Shown here one piece after another: positions 24,168 to 31,244 of a stretch of DNA of 32,000 bases. The notes below the pieces were generated by a model that made no database searches, was not told the DNA's origin, and worked only from the letters and a program-made list of their open reading frames with translations. The DNA comes from Microcystis aeruginosa NIES-843 (lineage in GTDB: Bacteria > Cyanobacteriota > Cyanobacteriia > Cyanobacteriales > Microcystaceae), in NCBI RefSeq assembly GCF_000010625.1, contig NC_010296.1:2400001-2432000 (forward strand), given 5' to 3'. Every line of letters starts with the position of its first letter. The stretch's first letter is position 1. The translations under genes and the position numbers were made by a program.

Positions 24168-24518
24168 TTAGCAGGGAACTAAGGCTGCTTCTCCCTCTGC
24201 GGTTCCTTGAGCGCCAACGGGTTCGGGAACTTCGAGCGGGAACTCGTCGCCGACTATTCCGGGCTGGCGTTTGATTGACCTTAGCCGATCTTCTTTCATC
24301 ACTAAGGCGGCATCACACTCGGGACAGACATGAACCTGATAGGTTTTGCCATAGGCGGCGGCTTCGATTTCTTCTACCTTTTCGGGGTATTTTAGGTAGA
24401 AAGCGATCGCTTTCTCCACCAGCCCTGACATCGATTCTTCATCGATCGCGGCTCTTATCTTTAGTTGACGATGGACTCCAGGGGGAAGGTACAGTGTGAC
24501 TTTTTGCTTGTCTTGCAT
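24168..24518 (-). CDS. Small protein with an RHH-like N-terminus and a CxxC motif; first gene of the ycf46 operon (slr0373-like by position)
   Basis: MQDKQKVTLYLPPGVHRQLKIRAAIDEESMSGLVEKAIAFYL (a CopG/RHH-like beta-helix-helix) followed by YQVHVCPECDAALV. The ATG at 24518 is preferred to the upstream start in the track. Confidence 0.65.
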   Translation of the reverse strand: MQDKQKVTLYLPPGVHRQLKIRAAIDEESMSGLVEKAIAFYLKYPEKVEEIEAAAYGKTYQVHVCPECDAALVMKEDRLRSIKRQPGIVGDEFPLEVPEPVGAQGTAEGEAALVPC

Positions 24519-24756
24519 ATCACTAAATTGGTTTACCCGGGTATGTGTCCTTACTATAACCACTGTCTTTCCCTCCTGTCAAGATGGTAAGCTGTTATGA
24601 CAGCATAATTGTAACATTTCTTTACAATTGTTGGAGAAGTGGGGTGATGGGGTGTGGGGTGTGGTGCGATTCGTTGGCTAGAAACTAGACAGTAAGACGT
24701 TTAGAGGATTAGTCGCTTGGTAAATGTAGTACCTTGATAACTTTATAACCCTACAG

Positions 24757-25447
24757 GTGCGGGTTAGTAATAACCTTAGTCCTGTCCTCTAGATGCCTAG
24801 AGTGACGGCATTTCCTGCTGCTTGAGACCGGGTACATCTGAGGTAGTGAGCGAGGAAAAAAAGCGGTATCTGATGGCCTAAATCAGAAACCCGTTGAGCC
24901 AGAACTTATGGATAGCCCTGGGGCGAAGATACGAATTAACCATCGTCAACACCCACGAGCCAAAAGGCTGACAGGCTCGAAACAAAAGTTAACAGAGTTG
25001 GGGCTGATAGCTTACACCACTATCAGTAAGGCATTCCCGTTGCTCTGTTGTGGACAGTATCATCCTAACGGTTCAACCAATGGTTATAGGGAACGAAGTA
25101 ACCCTGATTGACTCTGCCCGTTCTGGGCAGTAGGAAACCATCCGCAAGTCAATAGAGGGAGAGGATGTCCTTAAAAGCCAAGGCTTTGAGTAATATCAAA
25201 GATATGCTGACAAAGGACGGGTAACTAGGAAGTCTAAGCAACAATCAACGGTCATATACGCCCTAAAACCAACAATCTTGTCTGGTGGGGATACAGCCAA
25301 GAGGGTTGAATAGACAAGGAAATAATCATTCCCATTATTATTCTACTAATGACATTAGCCTAGTTACTCAGGAGCCGGATACGGCGAAAGTCGTAAGTCC
25401 GGTTTTGAAGCAGGGGGTGGGAAGGCGACTTCCTGCTCTACTGTAAC
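24757..25447 (+). ncRNA. ORF-less group II intron (691 nt)
   Basis: The 5' end is GTGCG (24757-24761). Domain V is at 25372-25405, GAGCCGGAUACGGC-GAAA-GUCGUAAGUCCGGUU(U), with an AGC triad, a GAAA tetraloop and a 2-nt AA bulge on the 3' strand. After a 3-nt linker, domain VI has a GCGA loop and a bulged A at 25440, 7 nt before an ..AAC 3' end at 25447. There is no ORF longer than 67 aa inside. Confidence 0.7.
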
Positions 25448-25657
25448 GGGTGTGGGGTGTGGGGTGTGGGGTGTAGGGTGTGGGGTGTGGGGTGTAGGGT
25501 GTGGGGTGTGGGGTGTGGGGTGTGGGGTGTAGGGTGTGGGGTGTGGGGTGTAGGGTGTGGGGTGTGGGGTGTGGGGTGTGGGGAAGTGGGGAAGTGGGGA
25601 AGTGGGGAAGTGGGGTGTAGGGTGTGGGGTGTAGGGTGTGGGGTGTAGGGTGTGGGG
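25448..25657. repeat. G-rich microsatellite: about 25 x GGGGTGT/GGGTGTA heptamers with 4 x GGGGAAGT octamers
   Basis: Read directly from the sequence. It starts at the nucleotide after the predicted intron 3' end. Confidence 0.95.
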
Positions 25658-25665
25658 AGAAAAAA

Positions 25666-25774
<109 letters not shown>

Positions 25775-25794
25775 AATACTGAATTGAGCAAACC

Positions 25795-26550
25795 CTAATT
25801 ACTATTGATGCGACTTAAAAAGGCTTGTAAGCGCTCGCTGTGGGGATTATTAAAGAAGGTGTCGGGATCACCTGCTTCTTCGATGACACCTTGATTAAAG
25901 AACAAAACCTTGTTAGAGACCTCCTTAGCGAACTGCATTTCGTGGGTGACGACTACCATAGTCATCCCCTCATCGGCCAATTGACGCATAACGTTTAACA
26001 CTTCCCCGACTAATTCCGGATCCAGGGCCGAAGTGGGTTCATCAAATAAAATCACCTCTGGTTTCATGCAGAGACTGCGAGCGATCGCCACTCGTTGTTT
26101 TTGTCCTCCCGATAATTGGTCGGGATAAACATCGGCTTTTGGGGCTAATCCCACCTTTTCCAGATAATGAATTGCCGTATCTTTAGCCTCATTTTCCGAG
26201 TGGTGTAACACTTGCTTGGGGGCCAACACCAAGTTTTGTAAAACGGTGAGATGGGGAAAAAGATTAAAGTGTTGAAACACCATACTTACCCGGCTGCGTA
26301 AGTTGCGGAGGACCGATTGATTTAACTTCGGGGAAGAGATGTCAATCCCCATCACCTCCAAGCGGCCACCGTTAATTGTTTCCAAACGATTGAGACAGCG
26401 TAAAAAGGTACTTTTGCCGCAGCCAGAGGGACCGATTACCGATACCACGTCCCCTTGATAAAGAGTGCCTGTAACTCCTTTAAGTACCTCTAAAGAGCCG
26501 TAACTTTTGCGTAAACCTTCACTAACAATCACAGGGGTGGTAGTGGTCAT
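25795..26550 (-). CDS. bgtA: Amino-acid ABC transporter ATP-binding protein (BgtA/GlnQ type)
   Basis: Walker [11 protein letters not shown]-loop, signature [13 protein letters not shown], Walker [13 protein letters not shown]-loop VVVTHEM. 251 aa, typical of polar amino-acid uptake ATPases. Confidence 0.9.
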
Positions 26551-28493: not shown

Positions 28494-28718
28494 TATTTAG
28501 GGTTTGCTGAATAAATCTAAAAACCTTGTTGGATAGGGTTTTTAGACTTGTTTTCCCTCAAAAAGTGCCGACCTTTGGAGTGATTGGGGGGAAAATTCCG
28601 GGACTTTTTCCCTGAAAATTAGGTAATTGACCCCCTGAAAATGGGTAAAACCCCACACCCCACACCCCACACCCCACACCCTGCCCCCAGGAAAAGCTTT
28701 TTCAGCAAACCCTATTTA
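28494..28718. mobile_element. MITE-like element (225 bp) with TATTTAGGGTTTGCTGAA / TTCAGCAAACCCTATTTA ends
   Basis: Terminal inverted repeats match at 16/18 positions and are the same as those of 18503-18704. The interior holds a (CCCCACA)n tract at 28651-28682. Confidence 0.55.
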
Positions 28719-29171: not shown

Positions 29172-31244
29172 CCCACATTCCGCACCCTCAACTGTCACAT
29201 AAGCTGTCCCCCTCCAGAGACTTGAGTAAAAATACCTAGCTGGTGAAGGTTTTCTCGGTGGCCGTTAGGGGGAGCTTGAGACCCCTAATTATGAAAAAAT
29301 AGGAATTGTTGGAAAACTTAGGCAGTGGGCTGTTCGACCATGAATCAATCAACAGAAATTGAAGTCAAAAATCTAGACCATCTGGGATTAGTAGCTGGAA
29401 TTATCGATGAAATAGGAATCGTTGAAATTATCAACGAACAAGTCTCAATTGAGCGAGGAGAAATTGTCACAGCGGGGCAAGTAGTGAAAGCAATTATCCT
29501 GAATGGATTGGGATTTGTCTCCCGAGCCTTGTATTTATTTCCTCAATTTTTTGAAGATAAAGCAACCGAACATCTGCTGGGAGAGGGCATCGAACCCAAG
29601 CACTTGAATGATGATAAAATTGGTCGAGTAATGGACAAACTTTATCAACTTAATGTTTCGGTCATTTTCCTACTCATCAGTTTAGCCGCCGTGAAAAAAT
29701 TTGGTGTAGCAACCGAGAACTCCCATTTAGATTCGACTTCTCTATCAGTAGAAGGAGAATATAAAAAGGAATACCCAACAGTAGAAATCCTGAAATCAGG
29801 AGCAGTGGGAGAAGAAATTGAAACCAGACAACAGCCAATAAAAATTACCTACGGATACTCCCGCGACCGAAGACCTGACTTAAAACAATTTATGATTGAC
29901 TTAATCGTAAGTGGGGATGGAGATGTACCTTTATTCCTGAAAGTAGGGGACGGAAATGAAGCGGACAAAGCGGTTTTTGGTCAAATCGCCCGAGAATTTA
30001 AAAAACAAGTTGACTTTGACAGTTTAATAGTCGGCGATAGCGCCCTCTATAGCAAAGAGAATTTAAAACTAATGAAAGAAATGCGTTGGTTGTCTCGAGT
30101 ACCATTAAGCATTAAAGAGGCTCAAGAGTTAGTCGATAGCATCTCAGAAAAAGAGTTAACCGATTCAGAAATACCGGGTTATTCCTGGCGGGAAACAAGC
30201 TCTAACTATGGGGGGATAGAACAAAGATGGTTGCTAGTTGAAAGTCAAGCTAGACAAGAATCAGACTTGAAAAAATTAGAGAAAAAAATCGAGCAGGAAA
30301 AGAATTCTGCCCAAGAAAAAATCCGGCAACTATCCCGAAGAGAATTTGAGAATAGAGCGGTGGCGTTGGCGATAGCCAAAGGATTATCTGACTCCTTAAA
30401 ATCTCATCAGTTAACGGAGATTAAAGTCAATCTCATTCCGCCTGAGTCCCAGGGGTCAAAACTCAAATCAAAAGACGATTTACCCTCTCAAAGCTATCAA
30501 GTTCAAGCCAAATTAGAGTTGAATTTGACCGCCATTGAGAGGCTAAAGAAACGAGCAGGACGATTCGTTTTAGCAACTAACGATTTGGAGAAACAACGAT
30601 TAAGCAGTGAGGATATACTCAAAAAATATAAAGGGCAACAAGCTCCGGAAAGAGGATTTTCTTTTCTCAAAGACCCCTGCTTTTTTGCTGACAGTGTCTT
30701 TCTCAAATCTCCCCATAGAATCGAGGTCATGGCCATGCTCATGGGCTTGTGCCTGCTGGTTTATACTATTGGTCAAAGACAACTTCGTTTAAGTTTAAAA
30801 CAGCAGGAGACGGGACTGAAAAATCCGTTGGGTAAGTTAACTGACCGACCGACGTTACGCTGGATATTTCAGTGCTTTCAAGGGATTCATCTCCTACGTA
30901 TTCAAGACAATCAAAAGATTAGCAACTTAACGGATGAGAGGCGCAACATTTTGAGATTTTTTCCCAAACCTTGCCAGGAATATTATCTCTTATCTTGACC
31001 AGATGGATTGACTTCAAGGGGTGACAAAACTTAAGCACTACTCGAACATCTCGACGCTAGATGTTAAGTCTGATTGCCCAGCCATTCTCAACAAGCACTG
31101 TTTATTGAGAATGACCGGGGGAACTCTGAAATTTTCGGCTTAGTTGCCGGCAGCTTGCCGCCAACTCACTCCTCTAGATAAGTATTTTGACTCACGCCCC
31201 TTCCTCTTTTGAGACGTTGTGACACTTAGGGTGCGGAATGTGGG
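29172..31244 (+). mobile_element. Intact IS1634-type (IS4 superfamily) insertion sequence, copy B (2073 bp)
   Basis: Perfect 17-bp terminal inverted repeats CCCACATTCCGCACCCT (29172-29188) and AGGGTGCGGAATGTGGG (31228-31244). It contains a single transposase ORF. The left 1037 bp is duplicated in inverse orientation at 1318-2354. Confidence 0.9.
29340..30998 (+). CDS. IS1634-family DDE transposase (552 aa from the ATG at 29340)
   Basis: MNQSTEIEVKNLDHLGLVAGIIDEIGIVEIIN... is a typical IS1634/IS4 N-terminus (DH.G..A.......I). It also has LDSTS (D1 region), VGDSALYS (D2 region), a long coiled insert, and FLKD..F.....FLK...RIEAL-like LKSPHRIEVMAMLMGLCLLVY. Confidence 0.85.
   Translation: MNQSTEIEVKNLDHLGLVAGIIDEIGIVEIINEQVSIERGEIVTAGQVVKAIILNGLGFVSRALYLFPQFFEDKATEHLLGEGIEPKHLNDDKIGRVMDKLYQLNVSVIFLLISLAAVKKFGVATENSHLDSTSLSVEGEYKKEYPTVEILKSGAVGEEIETRQQPIKITYGYSRDRRPDLKQFMIDLIVSGDGDVPLFLKVGDGNEADKAVFGQIAREFKKQVDFDSLIVGDSALYSKENLKLMKEMRWLSRVPLSIKEAQELVDSISEKELTDSEIPGYSWRETSSNYGGIEQRWLLVESQARQESDLKKLEKKIEQEKNSAQEKIRQLSRREFENRAVALAIAKGLSDSLKSHQLTEIKVNLIPPESQGSKLKSKDDLPSQSYQVQAKLELNLTAIERLKKRAGRFVLATNDLEKQRLSSEDILKKYKGQQAPERGFSFLKDPCFFADSVFLKSPHRIEVMAMLMGLCLLVYTIGQRQLRLSLKQQETGLKNPLGKLTDRPTLRWIFQCFQGIHLLRIQDNQKISNLTDERRNILRFFPKPCQEYYLLS

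Follow-up and report, generated by a model that had tools for sequence, protein, structure and literature searches.

Group II introns that carry no open reading frame (ORF) are already counted in systematic surveys (PMC8919778) and are a known kind of element in cyanobacteria. In Thermosynechococcus elongatus, the ORF-less TeI3 introns descend from ORF-carrying introns whose domain IV lost the ORF, and experiments have shown that proteins of related introns mobilise them in trans (Mohr, Ghanem & Lambowitz 2010; PMC2882425). One intron family of this species targets a repeated element, an insertion sequence (IS) of the IS200 family (PMC2882425). In Trichodesmium erythraeum, 10 of the 17 group II introns that splice in vivo are ORF-less, and maturases encoded elsewhere are presumed to be required for their splicing (Pfreundt & Hess 2015; PMC4649490). 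Here we describe an element of Microcystis aeruginosa NIES-843 that adds a new member to this kind. It lies in a stretch of 32,000 nucleotides (NC_010296.1, positions 2,400,001 to 2,432,000), hereafter the window, whose own numbering is used throughout. We read positions 24664-25447 of the plus strand as a complete, non-autonomous, ORF-less group II intron of the IIB or chloroplast-like type that belongs to a multi-copy Microcystis family, and we give this reading a probability of about 80%.

An earlier note on this DNA, made from the letters alone, had already proposed a group II intron at this place. Its identification was borne out by a covariance-model match above the curated cut-off, by a six-domain fold with covariation, by empty sites in other strains and by near-identical copies elsewhere. 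The Rfam model of group II domains V-VI (RF00029) matches positions 25370-25447(+) over its full length with 55.0 bits (E 2.3e-8), above its gathering score of 40 bits, and this is the sole Rfam match at gathering level in the window. The alignment to the model and the fold agree with the domain V that the note had described: a 34-nt hairpin (25372-25405, +) with the AGC triad at 25373-25375, a 9-bp lower helix, a two-nucleotide AA bulge on the 3′ strand, a 5-bp upper helix and a GAAA loop. Its helix is 99% paired across an eight-sequence family alignment. Domain VI (25410-25444, +) also has the features that had been attributed to it, a GCGA loop and a single bulged adenosine at 25440 (A777 of the intron). 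This adenosine is the candidate branch point; it is invariant in 8/8 family members and is followed by the seven nucleotides CUGUAAC. The 3′ end proposed at 25447, directly after CUGUAAC, is likewise supported by the RF00029 alignment, by the fold and by the other copies. Among the plastid domain V models, the ndhA/ndhB model (RF04356) resembles the intron domain V with 41.7 bits (E 5e-8), although this score is below its cut-off of 61; the resemblance fits a chloroplast-like IIB lineage.

The element is intergenic, as the note had stated. Its minus-strand neighbours are an RHH-like gene (24168-24563), followed by an AAA ATPase gene, and on the other side an ABC-transporter ATPase gene (25795-26550), so that it lies on the strand opposite to both neighbouring genes and interrupts no coding exon. 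The ABC protein is encoded residue for residue on many contigs, including those of M. aeruginosa NIES-88 (JXYX01000001, AP024565). The comparison with empty sites of related strains that the note had suggested could thus be made at this locus. In six assemblies with the identical ABC protein (L001-L006), the GGGGTGT/GGGGAAGT repeats are uninterrupted, and the gap between the RHH-like and ABC genes is 275-415 nt versus 1231 nt in the window. The alignment of these empty sites follows the window to …GGGGTGTGG and then diverges, nothing there resembling positions 24664-24756. The whole 784-nt block from GTGCGA (24664) to CTGTAAC (25447) is absent from the six assemblies. The GUGYG and AY termini of a group II intron therefore coincide with the ends of the mobile unit, from GTGCGA at 24664 to AC at 25447.

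Copies of the element were recovered by two routes. A metagenome scan, for which the query was a 34-nt lineage-specific stretch of domain V, gave ten loci with the same domains V-VI. Two of them (L129 and L130) are full length, measure exactly 784 nt, are 97-98% identical to the window copy, start with GTGCGATTCG after …GGGTGTG and end with CTGTAAC. In each of the remaining eight, a contig end truncates the intron at 110-150 nt, which is what a repeat should produce, and all of them end at CTGTAAC, after which the sequence is unrelated. Further copies (L139-L148) were reached via a spurious 67-aa ORF of the intron; one of these (L147), found via the ORF variant P0125, is in a metagenome-assembled genome of Microcystis aeruginosa (SFBH01000034). 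There are more than ten other copies, 94-99% identical, at eight or more distinct sites, and all Microcystis copies seen are intergenic, in either orientation relative to unrelated neighbouring genes. The polymorphism of the site beside an identical flanking protein, together with this level of identity, argues for recent movement.

More distant relatives were drawn by profile search from at least 120 loci of many phyla that had been fetched by a degenerate domain V pattern; none of these listed loci came from Microcystis. Full-length relatives were obtained from Okeania sp. SIO3B5 (L061), from Cyanobacteria bacterium P01_H01_bin.35 (L124) and from Hormoscilla spp. (L120, L083, L118, L051). 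Identity to the window intron is about 48-50% for L061 and L124. All the distant relatives are shorter than 1.2 kb, ORF-less, and begin with GTGCGATTCGTT or GTGCGAAACGTT. In one Hormoscilla locus (L051:2425-2480), a family member is nested in another copy, its 5′ exon CGTTCGGGTGTAAACAAGAC… corresponding to intron positions 8-27.

The 5′ end had been placed by the earlier note at the GTGCG of position 24757, for a length of 691 nt. Neither value stood. Inspection of the sequence reveals a GTGCG at 24664, directly after GGGGTGATGGGGTGTGGGGTGTG, and we set the 5′ end there because the empty sites, the other copies and the distant relatives all agree, which makes the element 784 nt long (24664-25447). 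An intron of 691 nt starting at 24757, the upstream 93 nt belonging to something else, is very improbable. The motif does occur at 24757, and a weak match of the Rfam D1D4-2 model to 24808-24877 (model positions 45-118) would imply a start around 24764 if the model begins at the intron 5′ end, but this match (19.6 bits, E 0.28) is not significant. Positions 24664-24756 are absent from the empty sites just as the remainder of the element is, and every full-length copy begins with GTGCGATTCG straight after the heptamers. The relatives that are about 50% identical have the 5′ end GTGCGATTCGTT in common, and there is no GTGCG at the position homologous to 24757 in the distant relatives (the motif is unconserved in L061, L124, L120, L083 and L051). 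Positions 24670-24675 are used by the closing helix of domain I, with compensatory changes, and the proposed intron-binding sites of the exon (IBS1 and IBS2) are located upstream of 24664, not of 24757. In the 691-nt version, domain I would lack its first 93 nt and with them the 5′ strand of the helix that closes it. A second GTGCG is expected by chance within 784 nt about one time in two; that of 24757-24761 (+), at intron position 94, is an internal chance match and not a splice site.

The earlier note had also called for a fold of domains I-IV, and this fold, together with domains V and VI, gives six domains supported by covariation, with candidate exon-binding sites (EBS1 and EBS2) and candidate zeta motifs. 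The domain layout was taken from the minimum-free-energy fold of the 784-nt element, and pairs were counted in an alignment (A2) of eight sequences of the family. In intron positions, the domains are I 1-437, II 439-496, III 504-555, IV 556-706, V 709-742 and VI 747-781. Domain I (24664-25100, +) is closed by a helix, I(i), between intron positions 7-12 and 429-434, that is 24670-24675 (UUCGUU) with 25092-25097 (AACGAA). This helix is 100% paired in the eight sequences, two of its pairs being flipped from U-A to A-U in Hormoscilla. Compensatory changes affect 3/4 pairs of the inner helix of domain II (25102-25159, +) and 7/12 pairs of the outer and inner helices of domain III (25167-25218, +), the latter being delimited by both the fold and the alignment. 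Domain IV (25219-25369, +) measures 151 nt and contains no reverse-transcriptase ORF; nine of the ten pairs of its closing stem (25219-25228 with 25360-25369) show compensatory changes.

The RNAalifold consensus on the same alignment displayed compensatory changes in 58 of 104 predicted pairs. Its pairing of the 5′ strand of I(i) with J5/6 was rejected and replaced by hand, together with two doubtful long-range helices. In the hand-corrected structure (99 pairs in 15 helices), 91.8% of the cells pair, versus 36-48% when the partners are slid by 1-3 columns, and 56 of the 99 pairs have changes on both sides, versus 6-19 in the slid controls; as the structure was partly derived from the same sequences, the contrast with these controls is inflated. 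None of 500 shuffles reached the observed value on four of five measures. Two short motifs of domain I are candidate halves of the 11-nt receptor of a GAAA tetraloop: UAUGG (24907-24911, +) for the 5′ half, with AUGG kept in 7/8 family members, and CCUAA (25064-25068, +) for the 3′ half, kept in 6/8. Both flank the sub-domain that bears the exon-binding sites, and this receptor-like motif is a candidate for the zeta partner that the GAAA loop of domain V should have.

This structure also bears on the idea that the element could be a DNA transposon, or a miniature inverted-repeat transposable element (MITE), that merely happens to contain a domain-V-like hairpin. It is indeed a short, non-coding, multi-copy and intergenic repeat, and in a target made of a 7-nt repeat any target-site duplication would be invisible. 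We nevertheless find such an origin hardly credible. No terminal inverted repeats joining the ends of the element were found, its ends are the canonical GUGCG...AC, covariation supports fifteen helices distributed over six domains, the Rfam match exceeds its cut-off, and the orientation of the insertion relative to the G-rich strand is always the same.

The 3′ exon had been taken for the start of a microsatellite. The array does resume at 25448, with about 29 copies of GGGTGTG (25448-25657, +; Tandem Repeats Finder), but the intron lies inside this array and not merely upstream of it, since the 5′ exon (24641-24663, +) is the array's left remnant and the heptamers are back in phase once 24663 is joined to 25448. 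The alignment to the empty sites diverges exactly at the end of this remnant, and G25448 is the candidate IBS3. Six of six independent 5′ junctions (the window, L129, L130/L142/L144, L143, L145 and L148) read …RGGGTGTG followed by GTGCGA. The 3′ exons start with G at 10/10 distinct sites and with GGG at 8/10, and about half of them continue as GGGTGT. From these uniform junctions, the intron appears always in one orientation, on the G-rich strand, and in one heptamer phase.

Candidate partners of this repeat are found in domain I. For the exon, GGGTGT (24650-24655) is proposed as IBS2 and GGTGTG (24658-24663) as IBS1. A hairpin at 25003-25027 (+), with the loop CUUACACCA and a stem between 25003-25008 and 25022-25027 that shows compensatory changes in 6/6 pairs, carries the candidate EBS1, UACACC (25013-25018), the complement of the six bases GGUGUG that end the 5′ exon. 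In other Microcystis copies, this loop contains CAUACC, with the pairing kept (C-G, U·G). In the Okeania relative, the homologous loop CAUAAG is the perfect complement of its own, unrelated exon end CUUAUG. An own-versus-other matrix indicates that the EBS1 loop covaries with its own exon in three lineages (6 bp in Microcystis, 6 in L061 and 5 in L124, versus at most 4 with foreign exons). The candidate EBS2, ACACCC (24949-24954, +), is complementary to IBS2 (GGGUGU, exon positions -14 to -9), and a parallel pairing can be drawn in L061 between UUAAU and AUUAA (-13 to -9) with the same 2-nt spacing from IBS1; the EBS2 assignment is suggestive. Complementarity alone was rejected as evidence for either site, chance complements of a G/U-rich exon being too common, and because it comes so cheaply the assignments rest on position and on covariation in the three lineages.

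We lean slightly towards a non-autonomous Microcystis intron lineage that has specialised on the dispersed (GGGGTGT)n microsatellite as its homing site. EBS1 and EBS2 would then read two consecutive repeat units, and each array would offer many equivalent in-phase intergenic targets. Such homing would permit repeated and even tandem insertions, as in L145:1-95, where two copies stand exactly 21 nt apart in one array (GGGTGTAGGGTGTGGGGTGTG, three heptamers), the 3′ exon of one being the 5′ exon of the next. In L142:106-1673, two identical 784-nt copies are abutted, …CTGTAAC being directly followed by GTGCGATTCG… with no exon between, and L144 has the same flanks with one copy; the pair could be real tandem DNA, the product of an intron circle or an assembly artefact. 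We found no description of a group II intron family homing to a heptanucleotide microsatellite in the searchable literature, which is weak evidence of novelty.

Other repeats accompany the heptamers. Two short minus-strand (GGGGTGT)n arrays of the window (9132-9167 and 28650-28681) contain three exact targets each, all unoccupied. A (GTGGGGAA)4.8 block and a perfect (CTGTCTC)15 array are found beside the array of the intron (25578-25615 and 25667-25774, respectively). Several 3′ target arrays (L130, L142, L148, L133) are followed by a common dispersed sequence, GGGGTTTTACC.GATTTTGAGG…TTTTCAGGGAAAAAGT.CCT.AATTTCCCCC.GATCACTCCCATATCTGGTACTTTT…, and some heptamer arrays seem to belong to a MITE-like repeat family. 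At the locus of the window itself, L139 (2513-5300), L141 and L131 have the intron and then a different 3′ flank (GAAGGGGTGGGAAGTG…), and their ABC gene is preceded by an additional WbsX-type glycosyltransferase gene; the intergenic repeat region at this locus is a rearrangement hot spot.

The absence of an ORF, asserted in the earlier note, was confirmed: the longest one inside the element encodes 67 aa, with no Pfam hit on record, and domain IV has only its 151 nt. The exact look-up of a 53-aa ORF also gave nothing on record. Gene callers place ORFs of 67 to 95 aa inside the intron. An ORF-carrying relative of the present RNA lineage exists in Hormoscilla (L021) and encodes a protein with reverse transcriptase, maturase and HNH domains. 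By blastx, intron nucleotides 679-747 translate to the extreme C-termini of L021-related proteins (...TxDKSLITEEPDEAKVSRPVLK), a 22-aa stretch that overlaps domain V and is the sole protein-like match in the element. We rejected an ORF remnant in domain IV, since this match is explained by the coding ends of those ORFs, which run into the conserved domain V. The match ties the RNA to the L021-type protein lineage, as a lineage marker and not as proof of a deletion. A DNA search of plasmids yielded only a 53-nt Nostoc match, and two scans of viral contigs yielded no match. M. aeruginosa NIES-843 was reported to have seven group II reverse transcriptases, of which six are almost identical and bear an HNH-type domain (PMC8934634), so candidate partners exist in the species. 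By analogy with the T. elongatus and Trichodesmium introns (PMC2882425, PMC4649490), it is reasonable to propose that a protein provided in trans serves both splicing and mobility.

The mechanism that we propose is inferred from established group II biology and from the same two precedents (PMC2882425, PMC4649490). The intron RNA would be excised as a lariat with the help of a maturase/reverse transcriptase, and the lariat-protein particle would reverse-splice into the G-rich strand of a (GGGGTGT)n array. Base pairing of the EBS1 (UACACC) and EBS2 (ACACCC) loops to two neighbouring repeat units, and of an EBS3 to the first G of the 3′ exon, would accompany this step. After insertion, the RNA would be copied into DNA by the reverse transcriptase/maturase of an autonomous group II intron located elsewhere in the genome. 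With a dispersed intergenic microsatellite as target, the insertion would be harmless and later splicing would not be required. The window copy itself, antisense to its neighbours and with no recognisable promoter upstream, is probably rarely transcribed.

A number of results weigh against this picture. For domains I-IV, the Rfam D1-D4 models, whose use the earlier note had also advised, gave no significant match (best 19.6 bits versus a cut-off of 36), which we read as these models not covering the present intron lineage. The exon-binding assignments face three difficulties: a shuffled intron should by itself contain about nine hexamers complementary to IBS1 when G·U pairs are allowed, the EBS1 loops of the Hormoscilla copies do not match their own exons, and no alignment column is complementary to the first 3′-exon base in all members, as would be expected of EBS3. 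As for the partner, no reverse transcriptase or maturase was found among the proteins of the window, no Microcystis protein among the best 120 of 7999 matches to the L021 protein, and no Microcystis record by tblastn of this protein against plasmids. No plus-strand promoter-like site was found upstream of the window intron. Twenty-three exact copies of the inferred 17-nt target are unoccupied in the window, so that either insertion is rare or more than sequence is needed. Finally, two copies are clearly defunct. At the window locus in L140 (2529-3868), from another Microcystis population, the intron is interrupted at about position 114 by a 1.34-kb insert with terminal inverted repeats (TACCAAATTTC…), a TA duplication and fragmented transposase ORFs; this is a degraded IS630-type element, and a twintron was therefore rejected. 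In L147:1-300, the copy is decayed, domains II-III and most of V-VI being deleted (…CTCAGGAGC joined to ACTGTAAC), and is followed by GGGTGTGGGG repeats.

Several of these results would also suit an intron that arrived by retrohoming and has since fossilised, either in the window copy alone or throughout the Microcystis family; without transcription, splicing or mobility today, it would simply be decaying within neutral, repetitive intergenic DNA. The missing partner protein, the unused targets and the broken copies all point that way, as does the zeta CCUAA motif, which is mutated in L130. The antisense position of the window copy and the lack of a plus-strand promoter-like site upstream of it fit as well. 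We consider a fossil possible but rather unlikely. Copies at different loci are 97-99% identical, the full-length ones being exactly 784 nt, and presence or absence among strains with an identical flanking ABC protein speaks for recent movement. The window copy has kept intact its catalytic AGC, bulge, GAAA loop and branch adenosine along with every supported helix, and the differences in the EBS1 loop between copies preserve the exon pairing.

A different possibility is that the window copy was co-opted as a structured spacer, as a source of antisense RNA or as a terminator-like insulator for the minus-strand genes. The intron is 82 nt from the strong minus-strand promoter-like site of the RHH-like gene, and it is kept at the same locus in several Microcystis populations (L131, L139-L141). 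Many strains, however, have no intron at this locus with unchanged flanking genes, copies elsewhere adjoin unrelated genes in either orientation, and nothing in the sequence demands a function beyond that of an intron, so that co-option appears improbable.

The promoter-like site mentioned above is sigma-70-like (24582-24553, minus strand; TTGACA, an 18-nt spacer and TATAGT, 11/12) and is the sole strong one nearby. It overlaps the start of the listed 131-aa RHH-like ORF, for which translation probably begins at the downstream start and yields the 116-aa protein annotated in other assemblies. At the empty sites of L001 and L002, "proteins" of 108 to 117 aa are called across the repeat array, the window counterpart being the minus-strand ORF 25438-25791. 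Farther away, the window contains a class I lysyl-tRNA synthetase gene (20448-22055, +; PF01921, E 4e-88) between DUF1257 and methyltransferase genes. As the latter two are adjacent in NIES-88 (L001, L002), the synthetase gene is a strain-specific insertion. Four tandem small ORFs made of 33-nt and 417-nt repeats (units such as AGGATGTTAACCAGAAATTTGACAGCCTACAGA) form a paralogous cluster at 13402-15219. An IS element with DUF4277 and a DDE transposase is present in two copies, one truncated (1317-2201, -; 294 aa) and one full length (29325-30998, +; 557 aa).

Annotators should replace the hypothetical genes of this region by an ORF-less group II intron of 784 nt. In Microcystis genomics, this intron family breaks assemblies, most copies lying at contig ends, and it marks recent differences between strains. 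For group II intron biology, it reveals an ORF-less family spread over distant cyanobacteria (Microcystis, Okeania, Hormoscilla). If the target preference is true, the intron would find in a microsatellite a safe harbour of many copies, where one short repeat is read by both exon-binding sites. The family would then be a natural case of persistence of a non-autonomous intron, and might supply a compact ribozyme whose target is simple and repetitive.

Among the described systems, the TeI3 introns resemble the Microcystis family in being cyanobacterial, multi-copy and mostly intergenic. They differ from it in that the T. elongatus partners are known and nearly identical in RNA, whereas the Microcystis partner was not found in the searches made. 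The T. elongatus introns also retain N- and C-terminal remnants of the ORF, whereas the only match in Microcystis is the stretch overlapping domain V, and the heptanucleotide microsatellite used as target in Microcystis is unreported in PMC2882425. The Trichodesmium introns interrupt protein-coding genes and must splice, in contrast to the Microcystis copies seen, which are all intergenic.

The relatives from Okeania, P01_H01_bin.35 and Hormoscilla share with the Microcystis intron the domain I-II junction GGAACGAAGUAACC, the core of domain III and domain V, and L061 and L124 have in addition the same 3′ end GACTGTAAC; their EBS loops are different, and their exons show no relation to GGGGTGT. 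In bacteria, introns of class C (IIC) are found directly downstream of transcription terminators or attC sites. They are shorter, have no EBS2, and recognise a DNA stem-loop together with a short IBS1. The Microcystis intron is similar to them in using an abundant intergenic motif, in place of a gene, as a "safe" multi-copy target. An assignment to class C was nonetheless rejected, as the 5′ exon is a linear G-rich repeat without a stem-loop, domain I measures 437 nt and a candidate EBS2 is present beside the candidate EBS1: what the Microcystis intron would recognise is a linear repeat.

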